Below, one piece after another: positions 6,494-53,406 of a stretch of DNA of 64,000 bases (positions are counted from its first letter, which is position 1; every line of letters starts with the position of its first letter). Under the pieces are notes generated by a model. The model was not told the origin of the DNA and ran no database searches. It saw only the letters and a program-made list of their open reading frames with translations. The DNA lies in NCBI RefSeq assembly GCF_003790525.1, contig NZ_CP033635.1; one strand, written 5' to 3'. This DNA comes from Escherichia coli (GTDB lineage Bacteria; Pseudomonadota; Gammaproteobacteria; Enterobacterales; Enterobacteriaceae). The position numbers were made by a program, and so were the translations under genes.

Positions 6494-6519
6494 GATTTTT
6501 CTCCTGTAATTTTCTGGAC

Positions 6520-22768: not shown

Positions 22769-25468
22769 ATGCGTAAATATCCTTTAAGTTTACTGAAGGA
22801 TAAAAATATTGTGACTTTTTTTGATTTCTGGGGAAAAACCCGACGCGGCGAGAAAGACGGGGGCGACGACTATCACCTTCTTTGCTGGCATTCGCTGGAT
22901 GTAGCCGCGATGGGCTATTTAATGGTTAAAAGCAATTGCTTCGGACTGGCTGACTATTTTCGTCAATTAGGTTTCGCTGACACGGAGCAGGCAGCACAAT
23001 TTTTCGCCTGGCTGCTGTGCTGGCACGATATTGGAAAATTTGCCCGCTCTTTTCAGCAACTTTACCTGCACCCACAACTCAAGGTCCCGGAAGGCGCAAG
23101 AAAGAATTACGAAAAGATCTCTCATTCAACGCTGGGCTACTGGTTGTGGAACCATTATTTAAGTGAATGTCAGGAGTTGCTTCCTTCATCTTCACTCTCT
23201 CCGCGCAAACTTAAACGGGTGATGGAGATGTGGATGCCCATGACTACCGGGCATCATGGTCGACCCCCTGAGCGTATGGATGAACTGGATAATTTTCTGC
23301 CTGAAGACAAAGGTGCCGCACGAGATTTTCTCCTTGCAATCAAGGTACTGTTTCCGCTCATAGAGATCCCCACATTCTGGGATGATGACGAGGGCGTTGA
23401 ACTTATAAAACAACTTTCCTGGTATATCTCTGCAACCGTCGTACTTGCAGACTGGACGGGATCGTCAACGCGATATTTTCCACGCGTCGCACAGACAATG
23501 GATATTGAAGATTACTGGCAGAAAACTTTAGTTCAGGCTCAAAACGCCTTAACCGTCTTTCCTCCAAAAGCAGAAAGCGCGCCTTTCACCGGAATTAATA
23601 CGCTGTTTCCTTTTATTGAGAATCCGACACCGCTACAGCAAAAGGTGCTGGATCTGGATATCAGCCAGCCGGGACCACAGTTATTTATTCTGGAGGATGT
23701 AACCGGCGCAGGTAAAACAGAAGCGGCGCTTATCCTGGCGCACAGGTTGATGGCTGCGGGGAAAGCGCAGGGTTTGTTTTTTGGCCTGCCAACAATGGCA
23801 ACGGCCAATGCCATGTACGATCGACTGGTCAAAACCTGGCTTGCTTTCTATTCGCCAGAGTCCCGCCCCAGCCTGGTGCTGGCACACAGTGCCCGAACAT
23901 TAATGGACCGCTTTAATGAATCACTCTGGTCCGGTGATTTAGTCGGGTCAGAAGAACCGGATGAACAAACGTTCAGTCAGGGATGTGCGGCCTGGTTTGC
24001 CGACAGTAACAAGAAGGCGCTACTGGCTGAAATTGGCGTCGGCACGCTGGATCAGGCGATGATGGCTGTGATGCCGTTCAAACATAATAATCTGCGGCTT
24101 CTGGGACTGAGTAACAAAATCCTGCTGGCTGATGAGATCCATGCCTGTGACGCTTACATGTCATGCATTCTTGAAGGGCTGATCGAGCGGCAGGCGCGTG
24201 GCGGAAACAGCGTCATTTTGCTTTCTGCCACGTTATCTCAACAGCAGCGCGACAAACTCGTTGCTGCCTTTGCGCGTGGTATAGAGGGCCAGCAAGAAGC
24301 TCCGTTCCTGGAAAAGGATGATTACCCCTGGCTGACGCACGTTACGAAATCCGATGTGCATTCACACCGGGTAGCGACGCGCAAAGACGTTGAGCGCAGC
24401 GTGAGTGTGGGTTGGCTTCATAGCGAACAAGAGTGTATTGCGCGTATCGCATCGGCGGTAAGTCAGGGGAAATGTATCGCCTGGATCCGAAATTCTGTCG
24501 ATGACGCCATCCAGGTTCATCGTCAGTTACTTGCCCGCGGCGTCATTCCTGCTTCCAGCCTTTCACTTTTTCATAGCCGCTTTGCTTTTAGCGATCGCCA
24601 GCGAATTGAAACGGAGACGCTGGCACGCTTTGGTAAAGAAGACTGTTCACAGCGTGCCGGAAAAGTCCTCATTTGTACTCAAGTCCTGGAGCAGAGCGTT
24701 GACTGCGACCTGGACGAAATGATTTCCGACCTTGCCCCTGTTGATTTACTGATCCAGCGAGCAGGGCGATTACAGCGACATATCCGCGATATGAATGGCC
24801 AGTTAAAGCGTGACGGTAAAGACGAGCGTCACCCTCCTGAATTGCTGATTCTGGCCCCCGTCTGGGACGACTCTCCGGGTGACGAATGGTTTGGCAGTGC
24901 CATGCGTAACAGTGCATTTGTCTATCCCGATCATGGGCGAATCTGGCTGACGCAGCGTGTGCTGCGTGAGCAAGGTGCTATTCAGATGCCACACTCAGCC
25001 CGGCTTCTGATTGAATCAGTCTACGGTGAGGACGTAGTAATGCCGGAAGGGTTTGCCCGCAGCGAGCAGGAGCAAGTGGGCAAATATTACTGCGATCGCG
25101 CAATGGCTAAAAAGTTTGTACTGAACTTCAGGCCCGGCTATGCCGCCAATATCAACGATTACCTCCCGGAAAAACTGTCGACACGTCTGGCTGAAGAGTC
25201 TGTTTCCCTGTGGCTGGCTACCTGTATTGACGGTGTGGTGAAGCCTTATGCCACAGGTGCACACGCATGGGAAATGAGCGTTGTCAGAGTGCGCCGAAGC
25301 TGGTGGAAAAAACATCGGGATGAGTTTTCTTTACTGGAAGGGGATGCGTTCAGGCAGTGGTGCGTTGAACAGCGGCATGATCCGGAGATGGCAAACGTGA
25401 TTTTAGTCACCGATGACGAAAGTTGTGGGTATTCGGCTACGGAGGGATTGATTGGCAAGGTTGGTTGA
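22769..25468 (+). CDS. cas3: Cas3 helicase-nuclease (type I-E)
   Basis: 899 aa; N-terminal HD region and superfamily-2 helicase motifs (GAGKTEAA, DEIH); first gene of the cas cluster. Confidence 0.9.
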   Translation: MRKYPLSLLKDKNIVTFFDFWGKTRRGEKDGGDDYHLLCWHSLDVAAMGYLMVKSNCFGLADYFRQLGFADTEQAAQFFAWLLCWHDIGKFARSFQQLYLHPQLKVPEGARKNYEKISHSTLGYWLWNHYLSECQELLPSSSLSPRKLKRVMEMWMPMTTGHHGRPPERMDELDNFLPEDKGAARDFLLAIKVLFPLIEIPTFWDDDEGVELIKQLSWYISATVVLADWTGSSTRYFPRVAQTMDIEDYWQKTLVQAQNALTVFPPKAESAPFTGINTLFPFIENPTPLQQKVLDLDISQPGPQLFILEDVTGAGKTEAALILAHRLMAAGKAQGLFFGLPTMATANAMYDRLVKTWLAFYSPESRPSLVLAHSARTLMDRFNESLWSGDLVGSEEPDEQTFSQGCAAWFADSNKKALLAEIGVGTLDQAMMAVMPFKHNNLRLLGLSNKILLADEIHACDAYMSCILEGLIERQARGGNSVILLSATLSQQQRDKLVAAFARGIEGQQEAPFLEKDDYPWLTHVTKSDVHSHRVATRKDVERSVSVGWLHSEQECIARIASAVSQGKCIAWIRNSVDDAIQVHRQLLARGVIPASSLSLFHSRFAFSDRQRIETETLARFGKEDCSQRAGKVLICTQVLEQSVDCDLDEMISDLAPVDLLIQRAGRLQRHIRDMNGQLKRDGKDERHPPELLILAPVWDDSPGDEWFGSAMRNSAFVYPDHGRIWLTQRVLREQGAIQMPHSARLLIESVYGEDVVMPEGFARSEQEQVGKYYCDRAMAKKFVLNFRPGYAANINDYLPEKLSTRLAEESVSLWLATCIDGVVKPYATGAHAWEMSVVRVRRSWWKKHRDEFSLLEGDAFRQWCVEQRHDPEMANVILVTDDESCGYSATEGLIGKVG

Positions 25469-25565
25469 GATGTCTGCGACAGGATTCTCTGAATAGTTGA
25501 TACACAAAAAAGGATGGAAGGATGGACAACCGACCAGGGATGGTCTTTTTTACGAGAGGATGCGT

Positions 25566-27128
25566 ATGAACTCGTTTTCACTTCTGACAACCCCGTGGTT
25601 GCCTGTTCGTTTCAAAGACGGAACGACAGGCAAGCTGGCACCAGTCGATCTGGCTGATGAAAATGTTGTCGATATCGCCGCACCGCGAGCAGATTTACAA
25701 GGTGCGGCCTGGCAGTTTTTGCTGGGACTACTACAAACCAGCTTCGCGCCAAAAGATCATCGTCGTTGGGATGATATCTGGGAAGACGGACTGGAAGCTG
25801 AAAAGCTACGAGAAGCATTGCTGTCTTTAGAACATGCTTTCCAGTTTGGGCCTGATTCATCTTCATTTATGCAGGATTTTGAGGCGCTCACGGGAGATAA
25901 AGTTCCGGTCGCTTCGCTACTGCCTGAGATTCCCGGCTCTCAAACGACGAAGTTTAATAAAGACCATTTTATCAAGCGGGGTGTAACGGAATATCTGTGC
26001 CCCCATTGCTTAGCATTGGCCTTGTTCTCTTTACAGTTGAATGCACCCGCGGGCGGCAAAGGCTATCGCACCGGTTTACGAGGCGGTGGGCCGATGACGA
26101 CTCTCATTGAATTACAGGAATATCAGGGCAATCAACAAACACCCTTGTGGCGCAAACTGTGGCTCAACGTGATGCCGCAGGATGAAGCCGACTTACCGCT
26201 ACCCAAAAAATTTGACGATCTGATTTTCCCCTGGCTAGGCCCGACGCGTACCAGCGAACTGGTCGGTGCGGTGGTAACCCATGATCAGGTCAATAAACTC
26301 CAGGCGTACTGGGGAATGCCGCGGCGTATACGTATTGATTTTAATACCACGACAGTCGGCAACTGCGATATTTGCGACGAGCAGAACGACGCGCTCCTGA
26401 GCCTGATGACGACCAAAAATTATGGTGCCAATTATGCCATGTGGCAGCATCCCTTAACGCCTTACCGTGTACCACTTAAAGAGGGTGGCGAGTTTTACTC
26501 CGTTAAACCACAACCGGGCGGTTTAATCTGGCGCGACTGGTTAGGCCTTATCGAAACGGGTAAATCAGAAAACAATACGGAACTTCCCGCGTTGGTGGTG
26601 AAACTCTTTAATGCCAGCAGTCTGAAACAGGCAAAAGTGGGCCTATGGGGATTTGGTTATGATTTTGACAACATGAAAGCGCGCTGTTGGTACGAACACC
26701 ATTTCCCGCTACTGCTCAATAAAAAAGAAGGCCAGATACCGAAGCTGCGGCTGGCTGCGCAAACGGCTTCACGGATTCTGAGTCTGTTACGGAGTGCATT
26801 GAAAGAAGCATGGTTCTCCGATCCAAAAGGTGCAAGGGGTGATTTCAGTTTTGTGGATATCGACTTCTGGAACAAAACTCAGCATCGCTTCCTGAGGTTA
26901 GTGCGCCAAATTGAAGAAGGTCAGGATGCGGATGAATTACTCGGCAAATGGCAAAAGGAAATGTGGTTATTCGCGCGTCAGGATTTTGACGAGCGTGTAT
27001 TCACTAATCCTTATGAGCCCGTTGATTTGAAACGCGTCATGACCGCGCGCAAGAAATATTTTACAACATCGGCGGAGAAGCAAAGTGCTAAAGCCGCCAG
27101 GGAGAAAAAGCAGGAGGCTGCTGAATGA
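25566..27128 (+). CDS. casA: Cascade large subunit Cse1 (CasA)
   Basis: Start taken at ATG 25566 (MNSFSLLTTPWLPVR) with GAGAGG upstream; the ORF track begins at a TTG at 25497; position right after cas3. Confidence 0.8.
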   Translation: MNSFSLLTTPWLPVRFKDGTTGKLAPVDLADENVVDIAAPRADLQGAAWQFLLGLLQTSFAPKDHRRWDDIWEDGLEAEKLREALLSLEHAFQFGPDSSSFMQDFEALTGDKVPVASLLPEIPGSQTTKFNKDHFIKRGVTEYLCPHCLALALFSLQLNAPAGGKGYRTGLRGGGPMTTLIELQEYQGNQQTPLWRKLWLNVMPQDEADLPLPKKFDDLIFPWLGPTRTSELVGAVVTHDQVNKLQAYWGMPRRIRIDFNTTTVGNCDICDEQNDALLSLMTTKNYGANYAMWQHPLTPYRVPLKEGGEFYSVKPQPGGLIWRDWLGLIETGKSENNTELPALVVKLFNASSLKQAKVGLWGFGYDFDNMKARCWYEHHFPLLLNKKEGQIPKLRLAAQTASRILSLLRSALKEAWFSDPKGARGDFSFVDIDFWNKTQHRFLRLVRQIEEGQDADELLGKWQKEMWLFARQDFDERVFTNPYEPVDLKRVMTARKKYFTTSAEKQSAKAAREKKQEAAE

Positions 27129-27661
27129 GTATTGTAAAAGAGGAGCACAAAGCCACGCTGCGTAAATGGCACGAAGAGTTGCAGGAAAAACGCGGCAATC
27201 GTGCCAGTCTGCGGCGTAGCACAACGGTTAATGATGTTTGTCTGTCAGAAGGTTTTCGTTCTCTGCTGATGCAGACCCACACGTTGTGGAAAATTGAATC
27301 ACAGGAGTGGCGTTTTACCGCACTGGCGCTGGTTGCCGCCGTTGCCGCCAATGTAAAAGCCATTGATGAACGGCAGCCTTTTGCCGCGCAGTTGGCGGCG
27401 GTAATGTCTGAGGGGCGTTTTACTCGCCTGTCGGCAATCAAAACGCCGGATGATTTACTGCGCCAGTTACGTCGCGCGGTCAAATTATTAAACGGTTCCG
27501 TCAATCTTATCTCTTTGGCAGACGATATTTTCCGCTGGTGCCAGGAGAGTGACGACCTGCTCAACCATCACCGCCGTCAGCAGCGGCCAACAGAATTTAT
27601 CCGTATCCGCTGGGCGCTGGAATATTACCAGGCTGGCGACGCCGATAACGAACAAAATTAA
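27125..27661 (+). CDS. casB: Cascade small subunit Cse2 (CasB)
   Basis: 178 aa; ATG overlaps the cse1 stop (ATGA); position in the operon. Confidence 0.8.
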   Translation: MSIVKEEHKATLRKWHEELQEKRGNRASLRRSTTVNDVCLSEGFRSLLMQTHTLWKIESQEWRFTALALVAAVAANVKAIDERQPFAAQLAAVMSEGRFTRLSAIKTPDDLLRQLRRAVKLLNGSVNLISLADDIFRWCQESDDLLNHHRRQQRPTEFIRIRWALEYYQAGDADNEQN

Positions 27662-27675
27662 TAAAGGACTATCTC

Positions 27676-28731
27676 ATGACGACATTTATTCAGCTTCATT
27701 TGTTAACCGCTTACCCTGCAGCCAACCTTAACCGTGATGACACCGGTGCGCCGAAAACCGTGGTGCTGGGTGGAGCAACGCGTCTGCGCGTTTCCTCGCA
27801 AAGTCTGAAACGTGCGTGGCGCACTTCTGCACTTTTTGAACAGGCGCTGGCGGGCCATATTGGTATTCGTAGTGGGCGTATCGCGCGCGAGGCAGCAACT
27901 ATCATGATAGAGAAAGGAATCGAAGAAAAAAAAGCCATCGAATGGGCGGCAGATATTGCCGATTATCTTGGTAAAGCCAAAAAAGACAAAAAACCAAAAG
28001 ATCCGCTCACTAACGCTGAAACTGAACAGCTCGTCCATATCAGCCCGGCAGAATTTGACGCCGTAAAAGCGCTGGCCCATCAACTGGCAGAAGAAAAGCG
28101 CGCGCCAAAAGAGGACGATCTCGCTTTGTTACGTAAAGATCGTATGGCGGTAGATATCGCCATGTTTGGTCGTATGCTGGCGAATAAACCCGAGTTTAAT
28201 GTTGAAGCCGCCTGTCAGGTCGCGCACGCGTTTGGTGTCAGTGAAACGATTGTCGAAGATGATTTTTTCACCGCCGTTGATGATTTGCGCCAGGCCTCTG
28301 AAGATGCTGGTGCAGGGCATCTTGGTGAAACTGGATTTGGTTCTGCGCTGTTCTACACCTATATCTGCATTGATAAAGATCTGCTGGTCGAAAACCTCGG
28401 CGGTGACGAAGCATTAGCTAATCAGACCCTGCGCGCCTTTACGGAAGCAGCGTTTAAAGTTTCCCCAACCGGTAAACAAAACAGCTTTGCCAGCCGTGCC
28501 TACGCCTCCTGGGCGCTGGCAGAAAAAGGCACCGAACAACCGCGTTCTCTGGCGGCGGCTTTCTATGAACCCATTAATGGCACACGTCAGTTAGATGTGG
28601 CGGTGCAGCGTATTACAACGCTTCGCGAAAACATGAATACGGTTTACGAACAGAAGACCGAATGCGCAAGTTTTGACGTGATGAACAAACAGGGAAGCAT
28701 GAAGGACGTGCTGGACTTTATCTGCGCGTAA
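27676..28731 (+). CDS. casC: Cascade backbone subunit Cas7e (CasC)
   Basis: 351 aa; position and size in the I-E operon. Confidence 0.85.
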   Translation: MTTFIQLHLLTAYPAANLNRDDTGAPKTVVLGGATRLRVSSQSLKRAWRTSALFEQALAGHIGIRSGRIAREAATIMIEKGIEEKKAIEWAADIADYLGKAKKDKKPKDPLTNAETEQLVHISPAEFDAVKALAHQLAEEKRAPKEDDLALLRKDRMAVDIAMFGRMLANKPEFNVEAACQVAHAFGVSETIVEDDFFTAVDDLRQASEDAGAGHLGETGFGSALFYTYICIDKDLLVENLGGDEALANQTLRAFTEAAFKVSPTGKQNSFASRAYASWALAEKGTEQPRSLAAAFYEPINGTRQLDVAVQRITTLRENMNTVYEQKTECASFDVMNKQGSMKDVLDFICA

Positions 28732-28741
28732 GGGGCGGCTT

Positions 28742-29488
28742 ATGAGCCAATATCTGATTTTTCAGCTTCATGGGCCAATGGCATCCTGGGGCGTTGATGC
28801 ACCCGGTGAGGTGCGTCATAGCCATGAACTGCCTTCGCGTTCAGCATTGCTGGGGCTGCTGGCTGCCGGGGTAGGGATACGGCGTGATGACACCGAATGC
28901 TTAAACGCGTTTAATCGCCACTATTCACTGGTGGTTTGCGCCAGCCGTAACCCGCGCTGGGCACGGGATTATCACACGGTCCAGATGCCAAAAGAGGTGC
29001 GTAAAGCGCGTTATTTCAGCCGTCGCGAAGAGTTGAGCGACCCTGATCTTCTAAGCGCGATTATCTCCCGGCGCGACTACTACACCGATGCCTGGTGGAT
29101 GGTGGCCGTGGCAACAACAGCTGATGCGCCTTACAGCCTCGAACAGTTGCAGGAAGGTTTACGCCATCCGGTTTTTCCGCTTTATCTGGGGCGAAAAAGC
29201 CATCCGCTGGCATTACCCCTTGCGCCGTTACTGCTCGAAGGCAACGCGTCTGATGCCTTACGTAACGCATACCAACAGTATCAGGATCGTTTCCACGAAC
29301 TAAAAGTCTCACTCCCGAAACTTCAGGATGAATGCTGGTGGGAAGGGGAGCACGATGGCCTGGTCTCGAGCAAAATATTACGCCGCCGGGATGTTCCTTT
29401 AAATCGTCAGCAGTGGCTGTTTGGGGAACGCACCGTCAATCAGGGGCCGTGGCTCAGCAAGGAGGAACCATGTACCTCTCAAGAATAA
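28742..29488 (+). CDS. casD: Cascade subunit Cas5e (CasD)
   Basis: 248 aa; position in the operon. Confidence 0.85.
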   Translation: MSQYLIFQLHGPMASWGVDAPGEVRHSHELPSRSALLGLLAAGVGIRRDDTECLNAFNRHYSLVVCASRNPRWARDYHTVQMPKEVRKARYFSRREELSDPDLLSAIISRRDYYTDAWWMVAVATTADAPYSLEQLQEGLRHPVFPLYLGRKSHPLALPLAPLLLEGNASDALRNAYQQYQDRFHELKVSLPKLQDECWWEGEHDGLVSSKILRRRDVPLNRQQWLFGERTVNQGPWLSKEEPCTSQE

Positions 29489-30116
29489 CCTTACATACCG
29501 GCCAGCTTTCGCCTGCGCAGTTGCTGCATCTGGTGGATCGCGGGGAATATGTGATGCATCAGTGGCTGTGGGATCTTTTTCCTGGCGGCAAAGAAAGGCA
29601 ATTTCTTTATCGTCGGGAAGAACTCCAGGGCGCGTTTCGCTTTTTTGTCCTGTCGCAGGAACGCCCGGCGGAAAGTGAAACGTTCACCATCGAATGCCGG
29701 TCATTTGCGCCTGAACTGCATACCGGACAATCCCTTTGTTTCAACCTGCGGGCGAATCCAACAGTCTGTAAAGCGGGTAAGCGCCACGATCTGCTGATGG
29801 AGGCGAAACGGCAGGTGAGGGGGCAGGCGGAAGGAAGAAATGTCTGGTTGCATCAACAACAGGCGGCGCTGGACTGGCTGGCAGCGCAGGGGGAGAGAAG
29901 CGGTTTTACACTGCTGGATACCTCGGTCGATGCCTACCGACAACAGCAACTGCGGCGGGAAAACTCCCGGCAACTGATCCAGTTCAGTAGCGTGGATTAT
30001 ACAGGGATGCTTACAGTCACCGATCCAGGGTTATTTCTGCAACGTCTCTGCCTGGGGTATGGCAAAAGCCGGGCGTTCGGCTGTGGTCTGATGTTAATCA
30101 AACCCGGAGCAGAGGC

Positions 30117-30120
<4 letters not shown>
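29470..30120 (+). CDS. casE: crRNA endoribonuclease Cas6e (CasE)
   Basis: Start taken at MYLSRITLHTG with GGAGGA at 29461-29466; overlaps the casD 3' end by 19 bp. Confidence 0.85.
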
Positions 30121-31330
<1,210 letters not shown>

Positions 31331-31426
31331 GTTACCCGTTCTTTAAAAATAAGGAAAAGTTTGAATTTAGTTGGTAGATTGTTGTTGTGGAATAAAATTG
31401 TTTAAAAACAGATACGTATGCTTAGT
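31331..31426 (+). promoter_or_regulatory. CRISPR leader (AT-rich) between cas2 and the first repeat
   Basis: 96-bp AT-rich segment immediately 5' of repeat 1, on the same side as cas1-cas2. Confidence 0.6.
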
Positions 31427-32797
31427 GTGTTCCCTGCGCCAGCGGGGATAAACCGGTGACCATAAGGGCATTTCATACTGCCTTGCTGTGTTCCCTGCGC
31501 CAGCGGGGATAAACCGGTGAACGTGACAACGCCCGCGACAGAAACGTCGTGTTCCCTGCGCCAGCGGGGATAAACCGGGAAGAAGCGGTAAAGCGGGTTC
31601 CAGTTCAGCGTGTTCCCTGCGCCAGCGGGGATAAACCGAAATTAATTTCGAAACGGGCGTTGATGGTGAAGTGTTCCCTGCGCCAGCGGGGATAAACCGG
31701 CTGGCGCACCTTACGCAAAAATAGACGTAAAGTGTTCCCTGCGCCAGCGGGGATAAACCGCCAGGGAGCGAAGCTGTGGCCATGCTGAAAGGGTGTTCCC
31801 TGCGCCAGCGGGGATAAACCGGGGTTCTATTTCCTCGGGATTTGCCGACACGCGTGTTCCCTGCGCCAGCGGGGATAAACCGGTCAACGCTGGTCAGGCG
31901 TGGTACTTCCTCCGGTGTTCCCTGCGCCAGCGGGGATAAACCGGCTGCCGCGCTTTCGGTGTGGGAGCAGTATGAGTGTTCCCTGCGCCAGCGGGGATAA
32001 ACCGAAACTCCGTGGTGTAGTGCGTTTGTTGGTGCGGTGTTCCCTGCGCCAGCGGGGATAAACCGTTGGTATTAACGGGAATGTAGTCACTCCAGGAGTG
32101 TTCCCTGCGCCAGCGGGGATAAACCGGCGATCGTATTTTCCGCTACGTCGCTCAAATGGTGTTCCCTGCGCCAGCGGGGATAAACCGTCGTTGATGGTGT
32201 GATGAGTGTACAAAAAAAAGTGTTCCCTGCGCCAGCGGGGATAAACCGACGACTGAATCCGGCGAGGCTATCAACTGGCCGTGTTCCCTGCGCCAGCGGG
32301 GATAAACCGCCGCACACGTCGAGCTGGTGGGGATTAATGCTGTGTTCCCTGCGCCAGCGGGGATAAACCGCAGTAAACGTTCGCGCGTTCTCGCGCTCAC
32401 GAGTGTTCCCTGCGCCAGCGGGGATAAACCCTCTGTGTATTCGCTACCAGCCAGCACCGGTACGTGTTCCCTGCGCCAGCGGGGATAAACCGCAGGGTAA
32501 CTGGCTGCTCCTCAACCATTCCGCGTGTTCCCCGCGCCAGCGGGGATAAACCGGGGTTTTAGCGACCGGACCAGAGTACGCAACAGTGTTCCCCGCGCCA
32601 GCGGGGATAAACCGTTGCGCCTTAAGTTCCTTAACTTCCTCTGTATGTGTTCCCCGCGCCAGCGGGGATAAACCGGGAGTGATGAATTGGAAGTAACGGA
32701 TAACCGCGTGTTCCCTGCGCCAGCGGGGATAAACCGGACGCACTGGATGCGATGATGGATATCACTTAGAGTTCCCCCCGCCCCTGCGGTAGAACTC
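31427..32797 (+). CRISPR. type I-E CRISPR array: 23 repeats of 29 bp (last one degenerate), 22 spacers of 32 bp, period 61 bp
   Basis: Repeat GTGTTCCCTGCGCCAGCGGGGATAAACCG starting at 31427, 31488, 31549 ... 32708 (every 61 bp); degenerate terminal repeat GAGTTCCCCCCGCCCCTGCGGTAGAACTC at 32769-32797. Confidence 0.95.
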
Positions 32798-42886: not shown

Positions 42887-43879
42887 ATGAGTCAGAATAC
42901 GCTGAAAGTTCATGATTTAAATGAAGATGCGGAATTTGATGAGAACGGAGTTGAGGTTTTTGACGAAAAGGCCTTAGTAGAAGAGGAACCCAGTGATAAC
43001 GATTTGGCCGAAGAGGAACTGTTATCGCAGGGAGCCACACAGCGTGTGCTGGACGCGACTCAGCTTTACCTTGGTGAGATTGGTTATTCACCACTGTTAA
43101 CGGCCGAAGAAGAAGTTTATTTTGCGCGTCGCGCACTGCGTGGAGATGTTGCCTCTCGCCGCCGGATGATCGAGAGTAACTTGCGTCTGGTGGTAAAAAT
43201 TGCCCGCCGTTATGGCAATCGTGGTCTGGCGTTGCTGGACCTGATCGAAGAGGGCAACCTGGGGCTGATCCGCGCGGTAGAGAAGTTTGACCCGGAACGT
43301 GGTTTCCGCTTCTCAACATACGCAACCTGGTGGATTCGCCAGACGATCGAACGGGCGATTATGAACCAAACCCGTACTATTCGTTTGCCGATTCACATCG
43401 TAAAGGAGCTGAACGTTTACCTGCGAACCGCACGCGAGTTGTCCCATAAACTGGACCATGAACCAAGTGCGGAAGAGATCGCAGAGCAACTGGATAAGCC
43501 AGTTGATGACGTCAGCCGTATGCTTCGTCTTAACGAGCGCATTACCTCGGTAGACACCCCGCTGGGTGGTGATTCCGAAAAAGCGTTGCTGGACATCCTG
43601 GCCGATGAAAAAGAGAACGGTCCGGAAGATACCACGCAAGATGACGATATGAAGCAGAGCATCGTCAAATGGCTGTTCGAGCTGAACGCCAAACAGCGTG
43701 AAGTGCTGGCACGTCGATTCGGTTTGCTGGGGTACGAAGCGGCAACACTGGAAGATGTAGGTCGTGAAATTGGCCTCACCCGTGAACGTGTTCGCCAGAT
43801 TCAGGTTGAAGGCCTGCGCCGTTTGCGCGAAATCCTGCAAACGCAGGGGCTGAATATCGAAGCGCTGTTCCGCGAATAA
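42887..43879 (+). CDS. rpoS: RNA polymerase sigma factor RpoS (sigma-38)
   Basis: Start taken at [21 protein letters not shown] (330 aa); sigma-70 family regions 2-4. Confidence 0.95.
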
Positions 43880-43894
43880 GTAAGCATCTGTCAG

Positions 43895-43931
43895 AAAGGC
43901 CAGTCTCAAGCGAGGCTGGCCTTTTTCTTTT
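43895..43931 (+). terminator. rho-independent terminator downstream of rpoS
   Basis: 13-bp stem AAAGGCCAGTCTC / GAGGCTGGCCTTT (one mismatch) with a 4-nt loop, followed by TTTCTTTTATTT. Confidence 0.6.
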
Positions 43932-43998
43932 ATTTGGGAGTCGGTGTGTTTTGTCGCCTGGATAAGACACGTCAGCGTCCCACCCGGCAATCAACATC

Positions 43999-44439
43999 CT
44001 ATTTGCTCATCATCTTGCGCACCAGCTGCATAAACAGCTCCTGCTCTTCTGCACTCAAACGCCCCAAAAATTCCTCATCCACACTGTCACCAATCGGTAT
44101 CGCCGCAGCAAGTACCTTTTCTCCTTCGGCAGTCAGCCAGACAAAGCGTCGCCGCTTATCAGCAGAGTCATGTTCTCGTCTGACTAAGCCACGATTTTCC
44201 ATTCGTGCCAACATTTCTGCCAGCGTTGCTTTGGTGCTGACGGCTGCTTCTATCAGTGCCACCTGTTCGATACCAGGTTTATCAGCAATGGCGCGCATCA
44301 CCGCGTACTGTGGTTTGGTCAGATCAGGTAACTCGTGCTGCCAGCGAGCCGTGTGCTGCTGAAAAAGCTGTCGTAACTGATGGAACGCTTTATTTCGTAA
44401 CGCCATGTAAACTCCGGGCAAACTATCTGCCGCTATCAT
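43999..44439 (-). CDS. MarR/SlyA-family transcriptional regulator
   Basis: 146 aa; winged-helix MarR-type sequence; divergent from the decarboxylase cluster. Confidence 0.8.
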   Translation of the reverse strand: MIAADSLPGVYMALRNKAFHQLRQLFQQHTARWQHELPDLTKPQYAVMRAIADKPGIEQVALIEAAVSTKATLAEMLARMENRGLVRREHDSADKRRRFVWLTAEGEKVLAAAIPIGDSVDEEFLGRLSAEEQELFMQLVRKMMSK

Positions 44440-44521
44440 AGCGGTTTTTCAGTGACGAAGAAGATGTTGTTACTTTTCAGCGCTTGCCGCGATGAAAACA
44501 GAGGCGTATTTTAATAATAAC

Positions 44522-44535
44522 GTTCGTATACGAAC
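44522..44535. promoter_or_regulatory. perfect 14-bp palindrome GTTCGTATACGAAC between the MarR-family gene and the decarboxylase operon (candidate operator)
   Basis: Perfect inverted repeat 18 bp upstream of the ATG at 44553. Confidence 0.35.
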
Positions 44536-44552
44536 AATTTAGAGAGTAAGCA

Positions 44553-45146
44553 ATGAAACTGATCGTCGGGATGACAGGGGCTACCGGTGCGCCTCTTGGG
44601 GTGGCATTACTGCAAGCGCTGCGGGAGATGCCGAATGTCGAGACTCATCTGGTGATGTCGAAGTGGGCGAGAACCACCATTGAACTGGAAACGCCTTACA
44701 GCGCTCGCGATGTTGCTGCCCTCGCAGACTTCAGCCATAACCCGGCGGATCAGGCGGCGACCATCTCCTCAGGTTCCTTTCGTACCGACGGCATGATCGT
44801 TATTCCGTGCAGTATGAAAACGCTCGCCGGTATCCGTGCCGGTTACGCCGATGGCCTGGTGGGGCGCGCGGCGGACGTCGTGCTCAAAGAAGGCCGCAAA
44901 CTGGTGCTGGTGCCGCGTGAAATGCCGCTTAGCACAATCCATCTCGAAAATATGCTCGCACTTTCGCGCATGGGCGTGGCGATGGTGCCGCCGATGCCTG
45001 CCTTTTATAACCATCCCGAAACGGTAGATGACATTGTCCACCACGTGGTAGCCCGCGTGCTGGATCAATTTGGCCTCGAACATCCTCACGCCAGGCGCTG
45101 GCAAGGATTGCCGCAGGCCCGGAATTTTTCTCAGGAGAATGAATAA
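44553..45146 (+). CDS. ecdB: UbiX-family flavin prenyltransferase (aromatic acid decarboxylase B subunit)
   Basis: 197 aa; UbiX/Pad1-type N-terminus MKLIVGMTGATGA. Confidence 0.8.
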   Translation: MKLIVGMTGATGAPLGVALLQALREMPNVETHLVMSKWARTTIELETPYSARDVAALADFSHNPADQAATISSGSFRTDGMIVIPCSMKTLAGIRAGYADGLVGRAADVVLKEGRKLVLVPREMPLSTIHLENMLALSRMGVAMVPPMPAFYNHPETVDDIVHHVVARVLDQFGLEHPHARRWQGLPQARNFSQENE

Positions 45147-46573
45147 TGGCATTTGATGATTTACGCAGCTTTTTACAGGCGCTCGACGACCATGGGCAAT
45201 TGCTGAAAATCAGCGAAGAGGTGAACGCAGAACCGGATCTGGCAGCCGCAGCCAACGCCACCGGGCGTATCGGCGACGGCGCGCCCGCGCTGTGGTTTGA
45301 CAATATTCGCGGCTTTACCGATGCCCGCGTGGCGATGAACACCATCGGTTCCTGGCAGAACCACGCGATTTCCCTCGGCCTGCCGCCAAATACCCCGGTT
45401 AAAAAACAGATCGATGAGTTTATCCGCCGCTGGGACAACTTCCCGATAGCCCCGGAACGCCGAGCCAATCCAGCCTGGGCGCAGAACACCGTCGATGGCG
45501 AAAAGATTAACCTGTTCGATATCCTGCCGCTGTTTCGTTTAAACGACGGTGATGGCGGTTTCTATCTCGACAAAGCGTGCGTGGTTTCCCGCGATCCGCT
45601 CGACCCGGATAACTTCGGCAAGCAGAACGTCGGTATCTACCGCATGGAAGTGAAGGGCAAACGTAAGCTCGGCCTGCAACCGGTGCCGATGCACGATATC
45701 GCGCTGCATCTGCATAAAGCGGAAGAGCGCGGTGAAGATCTGCCGATTGCCATCACCCTCGGTAACGATCCGATCATCACCCTGATGGGGGCCACGCCGC
45801 TGAAATATGATCAGTCCGAGTACGAAATGGCGGGCGCGCTGCGCGAAAGTCCGTACCCGATTGCCACCGCCCCACTGACCGGTTTTGATGTACCCTGGGG
45901 CTCGGAAGTGATCCTCGAAGGGGTTATCGAAAGTCGTAAACGTGAAATCGAAGGGCCGTTCGGTGAGTTTACCGGGCACTACTCCGGCGGGCGCAACATG
46001 ACCGTGGTGCGCATCGATAACGTCTCTTATCGCAGCAAACCCATTTTTGAATCGCTCTATCTCGGGATGCCGTGGACGGAAATCGACTACCTGATGGGGC
46101 CAGCCACCTGCGTGCCGCTGTATCAGCAACTGAAAGCCGAGTTCCCGGAAGTGCAGGCGGTAAACGCCATGTACACCCACGGCCTGCTGGCGATTATCTC
46201 CACCAAAAAACGCTACGGTGGCTTTGCCCGCGCGGTGGGCCTCCGTGCGATGACCACGCCACACGGTCTGGGCTATGTGAAGATGGTGATTATGGTCGAT
46301 GAAGACGTTGATCCGTTCAACCTGCCGCAGGTGATGTGGGCGCTCTCTTCGAAAGTGAACCCGGCAGGGGATTTGGTGCAGTTGCCGAATATGTCCGTGC
46401 TGGAACTCGACCCTGGCTCAAGTCCGGCGGGGATCACCGACAAGCTGATTATCGACGCCACCACGCCTGTCGCCCCGGACAACCGTGGTCACTACAGTCA
46501 GCCGGTGGTGGATTTACCGGAAACCAAAGCCTGGGCTGAAAAACTGACCGCTATGCTGGCCGCACGTCAATAA
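45146..46573 (+). CDS. ecdC: UbiD-family aromatic acid decarboxylase (C subunit)
   Basis: 475 aa; UbiD-family size and sequence; start overlaps the upstream stop. Confidence 0.8.
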   Translation: MAFDDLRSFLQALDDHGQLLKISEEVNAEPDLAAAANATGRIGDGAPALWFDNIRGFTDARVAMNTIGSWQNHAISLGLPPNTPVKKQIDEFIRRWDNFPIAPERRANPAWAQNTVDGEKINLFDILPLFRLNDGDGGFYLDKACVVSRDPLDPDNFGKQNVGIYRMEVKGKRKLGLQPVPMHDIALHLHKAEERGEDLPIAITLGNDPIITLMGATPLKYDQSEYEMAGALRESPYPIATAPLTGFDVPWGSEVILEGVIESRKREIEGPFGEFTGHYSGGRNMTVVRIDNVSYRSKPIFESLYLGMPWTEIDYLMGPATCVPLYQQLKAEFPEVQAVNAMYTHGLLAIISTKKRYGGFARAVGLRAMTTPHGLGYVKMVIMVDEDVDPFNLPQVMWALSSKVNPAGDLVQLPNMSVLELDPGSSPAGITDKLIIDATTPVAPDNRGHYSQPVVDLPETKAWAEKLTAMLAARQ

Positions 46574-46583
46574 GGAGAACAAG

Positions 46584-46820
46584 ATGATTTGTCCACGTTG
46601 TGCTGATGAACAGATTGAAGTGATGGCGAAATCGCCGGTAAAAGATGTCTGGACGGTCTACCAGTGCCAGCATTGCCTCTATACCTGGCGCGATACCGAA
46701 CCGCTGCGCCGCACCAGCCGCGAACATTATCCCGAAGCGTTCCGCATGACGCAGAAAGATATTGATGACGCGCCGATGGTGCCGAGCATCCCGCCGCTGC
46801 TGGCGGAAGGTAAGTGTTAA
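46584..46820 (+). CDS. ecdD: decarboxylase small subunit (D subunit, zinc-ribbon-like)
   Basis: 78 aa; CPRC...CQHC motif; 10 bp after the UbiD-like gene. Confidence 0.75.
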   Translation: MICPRCADEQIEVMAKSPVKDVWTVYQCQHCLYTWRDTEPLRRTSREHYPEAFRMTQKDIDDAPMVPSIPPLLAEGKC

Positions 46821-46861
46821 TAAAAAAGTGCCGGGTAGAGGCTTTGCTTTACCCGGCCACG

Positions 46862-47518
46862 TTATTTAATTTTATAAAACGATAACCGTCTGCTTTCCGG
46901 CGAGCCGGTATCAATATAAACCTGATTGGCAAATGTCTGGATGTTATCAAACATCATATGTCCAAAGATAAAACAGTCGGCACCGTTTATTTCTTTTAAC
47001 TCTCCCTTGAATGATTTCTGCACGCGATCAACAGGCCAGAGTAATTCGCTTTCTGCTATTTCTTTACCAAACTGATATTCATCACCCGGATAATCCGCAT
47101 GTGCGATGACATATTTTATTCTGTCGTTAGTGATTTCAATAATATGTGGAAGATTATGAAAACGTAGCAACAGGTCTATTGCTTCTTTTTGTTCCGTATC
47201 ACTTAACTCAAAGAACCAGTCGCCACCGCTGGCAAGCCACATATTGCCATCGCCGGTCGCGAACGCATCCAACGCCATCGCTTCATGGTTGCCTTTAACC
47301 GATGTAAACCAGGGCTGGTTTAACAGGCGCAGCACGTTAAGACTCTCCGGCCCACGATCGATGTTATCGCCTACCGAAATAAGTAAGTCGGTTTCAGGGC
47401 AAAAAGAGAGTTGATGTAAGCGGGATTGTAATAATTGATAGTCACCATGAATATCACCAACGGCCCATATATGGCGATAGTGATGGACATTGATTTTTTG
47501 ATAGCGTGTAGATGGCAT
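46862..47518 (-). CDS. pphB: serine/threonine protein phosphatase 2
   Basis: 218 aa; metallophosphatase motifs GDIHG and GNHE. Confidence 0.85.
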   Translation of the reverse strand: MPSTRYQKINVHHYRHIWAVGDIHGDYQLLQSRLHQLSFCPETDLLISVGDNIDRGPESLNVLRLLNQPWFTSVKGNHEAMALDAFATGDGNMWLASGGDWFFELSDTEQKEAIDLLLRFHNLPHIIEITNDRIKYVIAHADYPGDEYQFGKEIAESELLWPVDRVQKSFKGELKEINGADCFIFGHMMFDNIQTFANQVYIDTGSPESRRLSFYKIK

Positions 47519-47590
47519 GGTTTTACCCTGTAAAATAAGATTTCCTATTATACAGGGTATTTTTATTTGATTCGTCAGTTGTCGTTAATA

Positions 47591-50185: not shown

Positions 50186-50431
50186 GGGGTTATGTCCGGT
50201 TCCCTGATATTAAATGGGGTGTGATGGTTTTTATTTTCGTTGTAATCACATAAGGCGCACATGATACCGGAGTTAATCATTTCAGGGGAAGAAGCGAACG
50301 GCGAGTTCTTGATGGTGATTCCGGGAAAGATGCTGTTTTGCAGCTTTTGCGTGATGCTTATGAAGCAAGTACGCAAAATTGCGTCGGTTGAATAAACCTC
50401 CTCCTTCAGAGCCATAGTCCCCTTTCAAATT

Positions 50432-50454
50432 AAGTTGTAATATAAATACACCTT
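50432..50454. promoter_or_regulatory. NsrR-like operator candidate upstream of ygbA
   Basis: AAGTTGTAATATAAATACACCTT: 11-1-11 imperfect inverted repeat whose right half resembles the NsrR half-site AAATACATCTT; 18 bp before the ygbA ATG. Confidence 0.35.
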
Positions 50455-50471
50455 AAGAGTATGGAGGCAGC

Positions 50472-50816
50472 ATGTCCGGCAAGCGTATCTCTCGTGAAAA
50501 ACTGACGATTAAAAAAATGATCGATCTTTATCAAGCGAAATGCCCGCAGGCGTCAGCGGAGCCGGAGCATTACGACGCGCTGTTTGCCTACGCGCAAAAG
50601 CGGCTGGATAAATGTGTGTTCGGCGAAGAGAAACCAGCCTGTAAGCAGTGTCCGGTGCACTGTTACCAGCCAGCAAAGCGTGAAGAGATGAAACAGATTA
50701 TGCGTTGGGCCGGGCCGCGAATGCTGTGGCGTCATCCGATCTTAACCGTGCGTCATCTCATCGATGACAAGCGTCCGGTGCCGGAGTTGCCAGAAAAATA
50801 TCGTCCAAAGAAATAA
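50472..50816 (+). CDS. ygbA: conserved protein YgbA
   Basis: 114 aa; cysteine-rich (CPQ...CKQCPVHC). Confidence 0.8.
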   Translation: MSGKRISREKLTIKKMIDLYQAKCPQASAEPEHYDALFAYAQKRLDKCVFGEEKPACKQCPVHCYQPAKREEMKQIMRWAGPRMLWRHPILTVRHLIDDKRPVPELPEKYRPKK

Positions 50817-50820
50817 ATCT

Positions 50821-50843
50821 GCCGGAGAGCCATACTCTCCGGC
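50821..50843 (-). terminator. hairpin between convergent ygbA and the Mop-like gene
   Basis: 9-bp stem GCCGGAGAG / CTCTCCGGC with 5-nt loop; a U-rich tract follows only on the minus-strand transcript. Confidence 0.45.
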
Positions 50844-50854
50844 AAATAAGGCGT

Positions 50855-51283
50855 TTACGCTTTGGTGGCAATCAGGATGGCTGATGCTTTGATCAATGCA
50901 ATAACGCGCGAGCCAGTGGTGAGTTTCATTTCATCCTGACTTTCATTTGTTACCACTGCCACAATTTCAAAACCCGCATCCGTTTTGATATGGACAGTGG
51001 CGTTCACTGCGCCTTCGGTGATTGTCGACACGCTGCCAGCAAACTGGTTGCGAGCAGAGAATTTCAGTCCACAGTCTTCCGTTGCCAGTGTTACCCACGG
51101 GGCTTTAATCAGGGCAATCGCTTCTTTCCCTTTTGCCAGACCAAGAGCCTGCTGGCTGCTGTGTGTAACAATTGCCACCAGCTTTGCACCACCTGCCAGC
51201 GTCAGTTCTACTTCATCATTCACAGCGCCCATTGCTACTGCGCTAACTGTTCCGGTTAATTGATTTCTTGCTGAAACTGCCAT
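50855..51283 (-). CDS. tandem Mop/TOBE-domain molybdate-binding protein
   Basis: Start taken at MAVSARNQLTG with AAAGGAGG just upstream; two about 70-aa repeats each with an SARN-type opening and ALIKA motif; 45 bp downstream of fhlA on the same strand. Confidence 0.65.
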   Translation of the reverse strand: MAVSARNQLTGTVSAVAMGAVNDEVELTLAGGAKLVAIVTHSSQQALGLAKGKEAIALIKAPWVTLATEDCGLKFSARNQFAGSVSTITEGAVNATVHIKTDAGFEIVAVVTNESQDEMKLTTGSRVIALIKASAILIATKA

Positions 51284-51327
51284 ACTGCCTCCTTTCATTG
51301 AATGTTGATCGAGTATAACCACATCTG

Positions 51328-53406
51328 TTAAATCAATGCCGATTTATCAATTCCCAGTCGCTTCATCCGTGACAGCAGAGTCGTGCGTTTCAGCCCCAGA
51401 CGTTGCGCAGCGCCTTTAGGCCCGGCAACCACGCCGTTTGTTTCTTTCAGCACGCGAACAATCAACTGATATTCATCTTCGCCCTCCTGGGCGACAACCG
51501 TTGCGGCAGGCGGCGTTTCAGGTTCTGGTAAAGCAATATCTGGCAATGACAGCTGCAGCACGTTGCCGCGTGTTAGCAATACCGCGCGCTCGATGACGTT
51601 TTCCAGCTCACGCACGTTGCCCGGCCATTCCATGTTGCTCAGGATGCGCAGCGTCTCGGCAGGAATGCTGTCGATATTGCGCCCCAGACGACGGGCAATT
51701 TTGAAGGTAAAGGCTTTCGCCAGCAGCGGAATATCTTCCGGACGCTCGCGTAGTGGCGGCAGGTGGATCGGGAATACGTTCAGGCGGTAATAGAGATCAC
51801 TACGGAACTCTCGGTCGGCGACCATTTTTTTCAGATCGCGGTTAGTCGCGGCAATTAAACGTACGTCCGTCTGAATGATTTTGTTGCTGCCGAGGCGTTC
51901 AAACTCCTGTTCCTGTAATACACGCAGCAACTTCGGCTGTAACTCCAGCGGCATATCGCCCACTTCGTCGAGGAACAGGGAGCTTTTATCCGCCAGTTCA
52001 AAACGACCAATGCGCTGGGCGCTGGCACCGGTAAAAGCCCCACGCTCATGACCAAACAGATCGCTCTCCAGCAATCCGGCAGGCATCGCCGCGCAGTTCA
52101 TTTTTACCATGCGGCGATTATTACGCCCACTGAGATTATGGATAGCACGGGCAATCAGCTCTTTACCCGTGCCAGTTTCACCGAGGATCAGCACGGTACT
52201 GTCACTTTGCGCCACCATTTCAACTTGTTTAAGCACGCTGTACATGGCTTCGCTGCGGCCAATAATCTCGCCAAATTCACTATCAACATTGTTGAGCTGC
52301 TCGGTCAGGGCGAGGTTTTCATCAACCAGCCGTTCTTTCAGACGATGGATTTCCTGATAGGCGAGGGCGTTATCGACAGCGATTGCCACACGTTCGGCAA
52401 TCTGGCGCAGTAAATTCAGATTGGTAGTGGTAAACACTTTCTCTTCGCATTGCGCCAGTTTCAGCACGCCCAGCATGGTGTCGCCAGACATCAGCGGTAA
52501 CAGGCACAAGGTTTGAATCTGGTTGCCCCAGGTGTCGAACAACATGCGTTCATAGGGGGCTAAATCGTCCCGCTCGTGGAGATTAATCAACAGCATCTCT
52601 TTACTTTTGAAGACGCGTTCGGTGAGGGTTCCGGCTTCATCGACTTCGCTCTGTTCGTGGGCGGGATGCTGTTTATCAAGATAGTGAGTGGAGTAGATGT
52701 TGAGTTTGTTTTTACGGTGGCTGCGTAAGACGATGCTGATATCGTCAATGTCGAAGTAGTAATGGATTTCTTTGGCGACTTCGCTGACCAGTTCGTCCAT
52801 ATCCAGGCGGGAAAGCACCGCGTTGGTAATGGCAACCAGGATGCGGAAGTTATCGCGCTCCCGGCATAACAACTCATAGTCGACATTGTTAACGACGCGG
52901 CTCTGGATTTGTTCGGTGACGACCGAAACGATCTGCGTAAATGTTTGCAGACGATTGAACTCTTTTTCGCTCCAGGGGCGATCGTCATAACGAATAAATT
53001 CACAGCCACCAAAAATATGCCCTTCCGCCGCCAGTGGCATCAGGCAATAGTGACCAAATTTGGGGTATAGTCCACCTGCGGCCAGCTGCGGCCAGGTTTC
53101 ACAAAATTCTTCGTAACTGCAATGCAGCGTATCAGGGCGCGACAAAATGCTGCGTACCGGACCGTGTGCCAGAACAGTTTCGTCTTCATATTTAATGGGG
53201 GTGTCTTTTTCACGCGACGCGTAATAAGACGCACGTTGAGTCTGCGCTTGCCACAACACAATAGCCGCGTTGTCGGCGAGCGCAGAACGCTTTACCAGTT
53301 GCGAAAGAGCCTCACACAGCGAGGCCAGATCGGGCTGCTGCAATAGTGTCCGAGTGATGTCGAACAACCCTTGTTGTCCGAGATCACTCATCGGTGTATA
53401 TGACAT
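51328..53406 (-). CDS. fhlA: formate hydrogenlyase transcriptional activator (sigma-54 enhancer-binding protein)
   Basis: Start taken at MSYTPMSDLGQQ (692 aa); AAA+ sigma-54 activator motifs GETGTGKE and GAFTGA; C-terminal HTH. Confidence 0.9.
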   Translation of the reverse strand: MSYTPMSDLGQQGLFDITRTLLQQPDLASLCEALSQLVKRSALADNAAIVLWQAQTQRASYYASREKDTPIKYEDETVLAHGPVRSILSRPDTLHCSYEEFCETWPQLAAGGLYPKFGHYCLMPLAAEGHIFGGCEFIRYDDRPWSEKEFNRLQTFTQIVSVVTEQIQSRVVNNVDYELLCRERDNFRILVAITNAVLSRLDMDELVSEVAKEIHYYFDIDDISIVLRSHRKNKLNIYSTHYLDKQHPAHEQSEVDEAGTLTERVFKSKEMLLINLHERDDLAPYERMLFDTWGNQIQTLCLLPLMSGDTMLGVLKLAQCEEKVFTTTNLNLLRQIAERVAIAVDNALAYQEIHRLKERLVDENLALTEQLNNVDSEFGEIIGRSEAMYSVLKQVEMVAQSDSTVLILGETGTGKELIARAIHNLSGRNNRRMVKMNCAAMPAGLLESDLFGHERGAFTGASAQRIGRFELADKSSLFLDEVGDMPLELQPKLLRVLQEQEFERLGSNKIIQTDVRLIAATNRDLKKMVADREFRSDLYYRLNVFPIHLPPLRERPEDIPLLAKAFTFKIARRLGRNIDSIPAETLRILSNMEWPGNVRELENVIERAVLLTRGNVLQLSLPDIALPEPETPPAATVVAQEGEDEYQLIVRVLKETNGVVAGPKGAAQRLGLKRTTLLSRMKRLGIDKSALI

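Follow-up and report, generated by a model that had tools for sequence, protein, structure and literature searches.

Among described proteins, the closest to the gene product considered here is ModG of A. vinelandii, whose structures (PDB 1H9J, 1H9K and 1H9M) were reportedly determined by Delarbre et al. in 2001. ModG has a role in molybdenum homeostasis and takes up eight molybdates per trimer, and Mop proteins accept either molybdate or tungstate (PMC11980592). In the Tub, Mop and ModE proteins, the oxyanion is contacted by Ser4, Arg6, the backbone of Ala20-Val21-Asn22, Ser40, Lys60 and Ala61 (PMC11980592). We analyzed a window of 64,000 nucleotides from Escherichia coli (contig NZ_CP033635.1), in which a di-Mop (ModG-type) molbindin gene, here called mop, stands behind fhlA. 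The gene belongs to a well-known family; it is already annotated, and its presence/absence polymorphism is already published. It is on record as c3292 (PMC4209514), and it is labelled “modE” in PMC7232297.

The mop gene and its predicted protein

A first, sequence-only reading had described a 142-aa open reading frame behind fhlA on the same strand, and we found this coding sequence on the minus strand at positions 50855–51283 (142 amino acids plus the stop codon, from the open reading frame and its translation). The RefSeq entry is WP_000301062.1, a “TOBE domain-containing protein” of 142 aa, and the same gene is c3292 in CFT073. The interval originally assigned to it, 50855–51327 with no strand stated, is filled by the coding sequence up to 51283; the remainder, 51284–51327, is the spacer to fhlA. 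The fhlA gene, encoding the formate hydrogenlyase transcriptional activator, lies directly upstream on the minus strand (51328–53406, with its stop codon at 51330–51328). Adjacency and shared strand were as first described, but the spacer is 44 nt long, not 45.

Read directly from the sequence, the mop ATG is at 51283–51281 (minus strand). The strong Shine-Dalgarno sequence claimed earlier, AAAGGAGG, is present 4 nt ahead of it (51288–51295, minus strand), and the orthologous loci compared retain GGAGG or GGAG there. The list of open reading frames also offered a 155-aa form starting from a GTG at 51322, which we rejected because the upstream extension is not conserved and because RefSeq and all orthologues use the ATG. 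The length and sequence of the spacer differ among genera, yet the beginning of the protein is kept as MAVSARNQ or MSVSARNQ; thus, the start of mop is the ATG. Pairwise comparison of mop with its orthologues gave dN/dS values of 0.02–0.09, with a median of 0.056. Judged by these substitution rates, mop is a real gene under strong purifying selection.

The tandem Mop/TOBE organization proposed for the protein was confirmed by domain models. Pfam family PF03459 (TOBE) matched twice, at residues 4–66 (E = 1.6e-17) and 76–137 (E = 6.2e-16), and the NCBIfam Mop model TIGR00638 aligned with two segments, scoring 142 bits where the cut-off is 55. The two halves of the protein are identical to each other at 30 of 70 positions. 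ModG aligned over the full length (PDB 1H9J; E = 5e-33), mop residues 1–140 pairing with residues 4–143, and 68 of these 140 positions (48.6%) were identical. An AlphaFold (AF2) model built on a 17-sequence alignment was predicted with a pLDDT of 95.5 and a pTM of 0.86. Its top Foldseek matches were the three ModG structures 1H9J, 1H9K and 1H9M (TM 0.94–0.95, rmsd 1.3 Å), and the di-Mop domain of ModE ranked next (TM 0.88–0.90).

Equivalents of the oxyanion contacts are found in both repeats: S4, R6, A20-V21-N22, T40, K60 and A61 in repeat 1, and S76, R78, A92-V93-N94, T112, K132 and A133 in repeat 2, with threonine occupying the position equivalent to Ser40. These positions are kept in both repeats of nearly all 45 enterobacterial orthologues; the isolated exceptions are A21 in locus L020 and I93 in locus L046. 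The protein does not qualify as a ModE: NF007957 aligned over positions 124–261 only, with a score of 88 bits where the cut-off is 369. The mop protein is without the N-terminal winged-helix domain, and it has 142 aa compared with the ∼262 aa of ModE. It does not qualify as a ModC/WtpC ATPase either; those matches covered the C-terminal TOBE part only and scored 47–49 bits against cut-offs of 285–440. By its domain content, the mop protein is of the ModG type, made of two Mop/TOBE type 1 domains alone, and is neither a ModE regulator nor a transporter subunit. The labels “modE” (PMC7232297) and “molybdate transport system regulatory protein” (some sources) are misnomers, and our assignment sets right the database entries in which the protein is named as a transporter or as a ModE regulator. 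We also considered a reading of mop as a defence-system component and rejected it, as PADLOC gave no match.

The domain content bears on the idea that the mop protein is a molybdate-sensing partner which modulates FhlA, or modulates ModE by competing for molybdate, and so ties formate hydrogenlyase (FHL) expression to the molybdenum supply. The gene stands directly behind a regulator gene, ModE does its sensing through a di-Mop module, and transcription of hyc and fdhF in E. coli is said, from work of the Shanmugam laboratory, to depend on molybdate. However, the protein has no DNA-binding or other interaction domain, its two repeats have both retained complete binding sites, a feature of the storage protein ModG and not of ModE, and K-12 reportedly shows molybdate-dependent hyc regulation although it has no mop. 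We consider a sensing partner of this kind extremely improbable.

Distribution and origin of mop

We scanned synteny at 46 enterobacterial loci, using one genome per species. In 35 of the 46 species loci, fhlA lies directly upstream of mop and is itself preceded by hypE. This hypE-fhlA-mop order occurs in Citrobacter, Pseudocitrobacter, Klebsiella, Raoultella, Enterobacter, Kluyvera, Pluralibacter, Yokenella, Lelliottia and Kosakonia, as well as in the E. coli outgroups E. albertii and another Escherichia species. The fhlA-mop spacer measures 36–101 nt in the 36 fhlA-linked loci, and 36–56 nt in most species. Protein identity to the E. coli product is 99% in E. albertii, 91–95% in Citrobacter, 88–92% in Klebsiella and Raoultella, and 73% in Serratia; within Escherichia, the dS of mop is 0.24–0.34. 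Identity thus drops with taxonomic distance, which fits vertical descent. Because the hypE-fhlA-mop order is conserved in 35 species, the comparison indicates that mop is ancestral at this site in the Enterobacteriaceae and that the K-12 state is a loss, the gene having been deleted in E. coli lineages including K-12. A recent horizontal acquisition in E. coli was considered and rejected, since the conserved synteny and the vertical-looking divergence speak against it.

Several orthologues stand in other surroundings. In Phytobacter and one Kosakonia, mop follows hypE without fhlA, and a few Enterobacter and Raoultella loci are also without fhlA adjacent to mop. The three loci of the first kind (L034, L039 and L046, at about 5890–5960; Phytobacter and Kosakonia sp. 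S29), in which fhlA is missing and mop is behind hypE, contain in their spacers an inverted repeat of ∼8–10 bp; in L046 it is CTATACCCAT-N9-ATGGGTATAG, about 75 nt before the ATG. This repeat may be an operator. Orthologues from Serratia, Cedecea and Edwardsiella (69–73% identity) lie among transporter, aldehyde dehydrogenase and nucleotidase genes. In Enterobacter sp. EA-1 (locus L044, 6001–6340), the orthologue carries a frameshift that cuts it to 113 codons, an independent inactivation.

A copy in Salmonella enterica (loci L052/L053, 6001–6429; protein P0058, serovar Java-type) is 87% identical and is not beside fhlA. It adjoins a fimbrial usher/chaperone pair and an IS66 TnpB gene, and this context suggests relocation or horizontal transfer. 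We also considered whether a gene next to fhlA in Salmonella LT2, STM2860, might be this Mop protein. The idea gained no support: the literature searched yielded no Mop protein under that name, and the Salmonella copy that we located is the one in the fimbrial/IS66 island. No mop-like gene is listed at the Salmonella fhlA boundary in PMC7232297. Free-standing di-Mop paralogues are found on Burkholderia replicons and on large plasmids of Klebsiella, Enterobacter and Pantoea, at 58–85% identity overall and at 58–79% on the Klebsiella and Enterobacter plasmids. They are carried by pCAV1344-250 of K. pneumoniae (locus L055, 7001–7429) and by 37 other true plasmids, a count from which we set apart two 4.9 Mb “plasmid” records labelled E. 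coli that are evidently chromosomes. On pCAV1344-250, the di-Mop gene adjoins an IS3 transposase gene and a DeoR-regulated ABC transporter.

The far side of mop is variable. In Klebsiella, Raoultella, Enterobacter and Kosakonia, mop and ygbA are separated by an additional 1–6 kb of DNA (loci L010, L013, L015, L017, L020, L023, L024, L031, L036 and L037). The same insertion place holds sitABCD and, in Salmonella, SPI-1 (PMC7232297). The mop gene is the fhlA-side border of this insertion hotspot.

These surroundings bring in the main rival to the reading that we favor, namely that mop encodes a general-purpose molybdate/tungstate buffer with its own constitutive promoter, and that its place behind fhlA is an accident of a recombination-prone locus with no tie to FHL. 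Orthologues and paralogues are free-standing in unrelated contexts, and the interval between fhlA and mutS is a documented hotspot of island gain and loss (PMC7232297). On the other hand, the fhlA-mop order persists in at least 35 species while the far side of mop varies. Together with the promoter evidence considered below, we regard an unconnected general buffer as possible, if rather doubtful.

Within E. coli, mop is carried by 1889 of 5426 complete genomes (35%), where a carrier is a genome that covers at least 80% of a 621-bp query across mop. Intact TOBE or “molybdopterin-binding” proteins are annotated in all 11 of the 11 carrier genomes sampled. In non-carrier genomes the fhlA end alone matches or, in one sampled genome, the ygbA end alone. 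The distance between ygbA and fhlA in a K-12-like genome is 36 nt, and alignment with that locus reveals one clean gap of ∼475 bp, with no gene remnant, which reaches from just past the hairpin described below to just before the fhlA stop. The sequence-only reading had suspected that K-12 has no such gene between fhlA and ygbA, and this genome comparison bears it out. Its further suggestion that mop is accessory is right insofar as presence and absence are polymorphic in E. coli, but the gene is ancestral, with its synteny kept in 35 of the 46 species loci. PMC7232297 states that K-12-type genomes lack the gene, and the amplicon sizes in PMC4209514 show the same; ygbA is the sole gene between fhlA and mutS in K-12 (Lerminiaux et al., PMC7232297), and E. 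albertii, E. fergusonii and IAI39 are listed as carriers (PMC7232297).

The two alleles also differ beside the deletion. The convergent neighbor, ygbA, spans 50472–50816 on the plus strand (345 nt, 114 aa), whereas the K-12-like coding sequence has 354 nt (∼117 aa); the difference in length arises because the 3′ end differs beside the indel. The stem of the terminator that the two genes share reads GCCGGAGAGCCATACTCTCCGGC in the carrier allele (50808–50850) versus GCCGGACAGGCAGATCTGTCCGGC in the K-12-type allele (locus L001, 1455–1500), with compensatory changes. Since both the 3′ end of ygbA and the hairpin differ between the alleles, the haplotypes are either old or have been exchanged by recombination. 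Between ygbA and mutS, a 44-codon open reading frame at 50261–50395 (plus strand) is listed in RefSeq as a hypothetical protein, both here and in K-12-like genomes.

A long fhlA-mutS amplicon, with c3292 present, was found “exclusively” in pattern III (CFT073-like) strains (Ewers et al., PMC4209514). The mutS-rpoS spacer of the present window (∼43800–47520, rpoS to pphB) is of the short type, without ygbI-ygbN, and contains genes for a MarR-family regulator, hydroxyarylic acid decarboxylase subunits B, C and D, and pphB. Here c3292 is combined with a pattern I-like (EDL933-like) spacer, and thus the two polymorphisms are not strictly linked. Elsewhere in the window there is a complete type I-E CRISPR-Cas locus (cas3 to cas2; ∼5240–6613, 23400–32060 and 32160–32740) with arrays of 1374 and 579 bp, which is ordinary for E. 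coli.

Transcription of mop

A terminator scan found no terminator-like site in the 44-nt spacer between fhlA and mop, and folding of the spacer RNA gave no stable structure (z-score +0.35). Behind mop, a bidirectional hairpin terminator common to the convergent mop and ygbA genes spans 50817–50847, between the two stop codons; it consists of a 14-pair stem followed by the T-run TTATTTCTTT and has a folding energy of −28.5 kcal/mol (z = −4.68). A variant of this hairpin stands directly behind fhlA in K-12-type genomes. With no terminator or stable fold before mop and a strong hairpin after it, read-through from fhlA is likely. The sequence-only reading had called co-transcription probable, and on these features we concur that mop is likely co-transcribed with fhlA in Escherichia, which may not be its sole route of expression. 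The gene has the marks of a member of the hyp-fhlA unit: the same strand, a short spacer, a terminator after it only and a conserved order.

As to a second route, a candidate −10 element is the hexamer TATACT at 51312–51317 (minus strand), which stands 10 nt behind the fhlA stop and 34 nt ahead of the ATG. In 34 of 47 loci, a hexamer of the form TATA[ACT]N occurs 28–50 nt ahead of the mop ATG, compared with 4.7 expected from shuffled sequences; these loci are related to one another, so the excess over the shuffles does not amount to a probability. In loci with long spacers, the hexamer keeps a constant distance from the ATG and not from the fhlA stop. In a Lelliottia sp. (locus L032, 5914–5935), a terminator-like hairpin of 9 pairs with the tail TTCCTTTCAA lies between fhlA and mop, with TGTTATAAAT after it, and mop is probably transcribed on its own in this genus. 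The conserved TATA-like motif and the Lelliottia terminator suggest that mop may also have a promoter of its own, at least in some species.

The same observations speak for the general-purpose buffer with a constitutive promoter, in that the hexamer is fixed relative to the ATG rather than to the fhlA stop and in that Lelliottia places a terminator-like hairpin and then TGTTATAAAT ahead of mop. Against it, a consensus scan of 50400–51900 gave no sigma-70 promoter, owing to the lack of a usable −35 element, and the spacer is only 36–56 nt in most species and is without a terminator.

Candidate regulatory elements were examined as well. The E. coli ModE operator consensus is ATCGNTATATA-N6-TATATANCGAT (PMC545781). 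When 150 nt upstream of mop were scored against this E. coli consensus in 47 loci, the best sites had 9–14 of the 20 specified bases, the same as shuffled sequences, and we rejected a ModE operator. There is thus no sign, in these upstream regions, of molybdate-responsive control. For the spacer and its flanks, Rfam gave no match at E ≤ 1, and we likewise rejected a riboswitch or another known RNA there.

Function of the mop protein and comparison with described systems

We think it fairly probable that mop encodes a ModG-type oxyanion store and is the last gene of the hyp-fhlA unit, expressed by read-through, ancestral to the family and lost in K-12 types; of this reading, trimer formation, oxyanion binding, co-transcription and the benefit to FHL are the parts we infer. 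By homology to A. vinelandii ModG, the protein would be a cytoplasmic molbindin that forms a trimer, a pseudo-hexamer of Mop domains, and each trimer would have room for as many as eight oxyanions, either molybdate or tungstate. Of the predicted sites, two would lie on the three-fold axis, with the G-A-V-N loops (A20-V21-N22 and A92-V93-N94) providing their backbone contacts. The six others would be interface sites, formed by S4, R6, K60 and A61 with T40 and by S76, R78, K132 and A133 with T112. Because the protein has no DNA-binding or ATPase domain, it would act as an oxyanion buffer or store and not as a regulator or transporter. We found no experimental study of the mop protein in the searchable literature.

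As the last gene of the hyp-fhlA unit, mop would be expressed mostly by read-through from fhlA, possibly with a weak promoter of its own in addition, and its transcription would stop at the hairpin common to ygbA. Its position in the unit may raise the level of the protein under anaerobic, formate-rich conditions. Extra molybdate could then be held while formate hydrogenlyase, with its molybdenum cofactor-dependent FdhH, is made. Such a link to FHL, argued from gene position, is plausible. The mop neighbors in the window are hypE-fhlA and ygbA-mutS, with no link to genes of molybdate transport or regulation, and modABC and moa/moe genes were absent beside mop in the loci whose flanks were examined.

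The store would be a dispensable one, as indicated by the ∼475 bp deletion in the lineages that contain K-12; 65% of E. coli genomes do without mop. K-12 makes a working FHL without the gene, and orthologues elsewhere are unlinked to FHL genes, which is why a general housekeeping role is the main rival to a store that serves FHL. If ModG-like storage is the true function, many Enterobacteriaceae and about one-third of E. coli, among them the B2 carriers CFT073 and NC101, hold a molybdenum buffer that is missing from K-12. When molybdate is limiting, as it may be in the gut or urinary tract, such a buffer could affect the activity of FHL and other molybdoenzymes. The scope of the finding is modest, as the family is well understood.

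A stronger version of the link to FHL would be a feed-forward effect. With a high-capacity store as the last gene of the hyp-fhlA operon, which FhlA autoregulates, induction by formate would raise the pool of bound molybdate as FdhH is made, the free molybdate seen by ModE would fall, and mod and hyc expression would shift. We consider this unlikely. If it were true, the deletion in A/B1/E-type E. coli, including K-12, would have changed the response of FHL to the molybdenum supply, and the textbook behavior of K-12 would differ from that of B2/F strains and of most other Enterobacteriaceae.

Since Mop proteins bind both oxyanions, the physiological ligand of the mop protein is not fixed. It might sequester tungstate in the manner of a “TudG”-like protein, keeping it out of the molybdenum cofactor pathway or storing it. 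The known E. coli enzymes of the pathway reportedly use molybdenum, there is no tupABC and there are no tungstoenzyme genes nearby in the loci examined, and the closest characterized relative is a molybdate-homeostasis protein, all of which weigh against tungstate as the ligand. In its favor, Mop/TOBE proteins bind the two oxyanions with similar affinity, the same binding residues serve both ligands, and the ModG/TudG architecture is found in more gut species predicted to use tungsten than molybdenum (PMC11980592). On balance, we judge a dedicated tungstate protein very unlikely.

Among the described relatives of the mop protein, ModG of A. vinelandii has the same architecture of two Mop domains only (∼145 aa versus 142 aa here) and, like the mop protein, carries the SARN, GAVN, T-x-x-S and KA(P/S) motifs in both repeats. 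It differs in setting; ModG belongs to a diazotroph, where it is linked to genes of molybdate transport and supports nitrogenase as well as molybdenum homeostasis (PMC11980592), whereas mop follows hyp-fhlA in enteric bacteria and has no mod or nif genes nearby. The C-terminal di-Mop region of ModE (1H9R, 1H9S, 1O7L and 1B9M) has the same tandem-Mop fold and is 34–36% identical to the mop protein. Its repeat 1 has equivalent molybdate ligands. In its repeat 2, however, the binding motifs are lost (NADN and FNAD in place of SARN and IKAS), while the mop protein keeps them and lacks the DNA-binding winged-helix domain found at the N terminus of ModE. The hexameric Mop and Tub proteins (C. pasteurianum MopII, 1GUG; Sporomusa, 1FR3; Eubacterium limosum Tub, 9BEB) consist of the same domain, with oxyanion sites of the same two kinds. 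The two halves of the mop protein are each 30–40% identical to these ∼70-aa proteins, and the residue numbering of repeat 1 of the mop protein is that of Tub. In the Mop and Tub proteins, single domains assemble into a hexamer; the mop protein instead carries two domains in one chain, an arrangement that in ModG forms a trimer.
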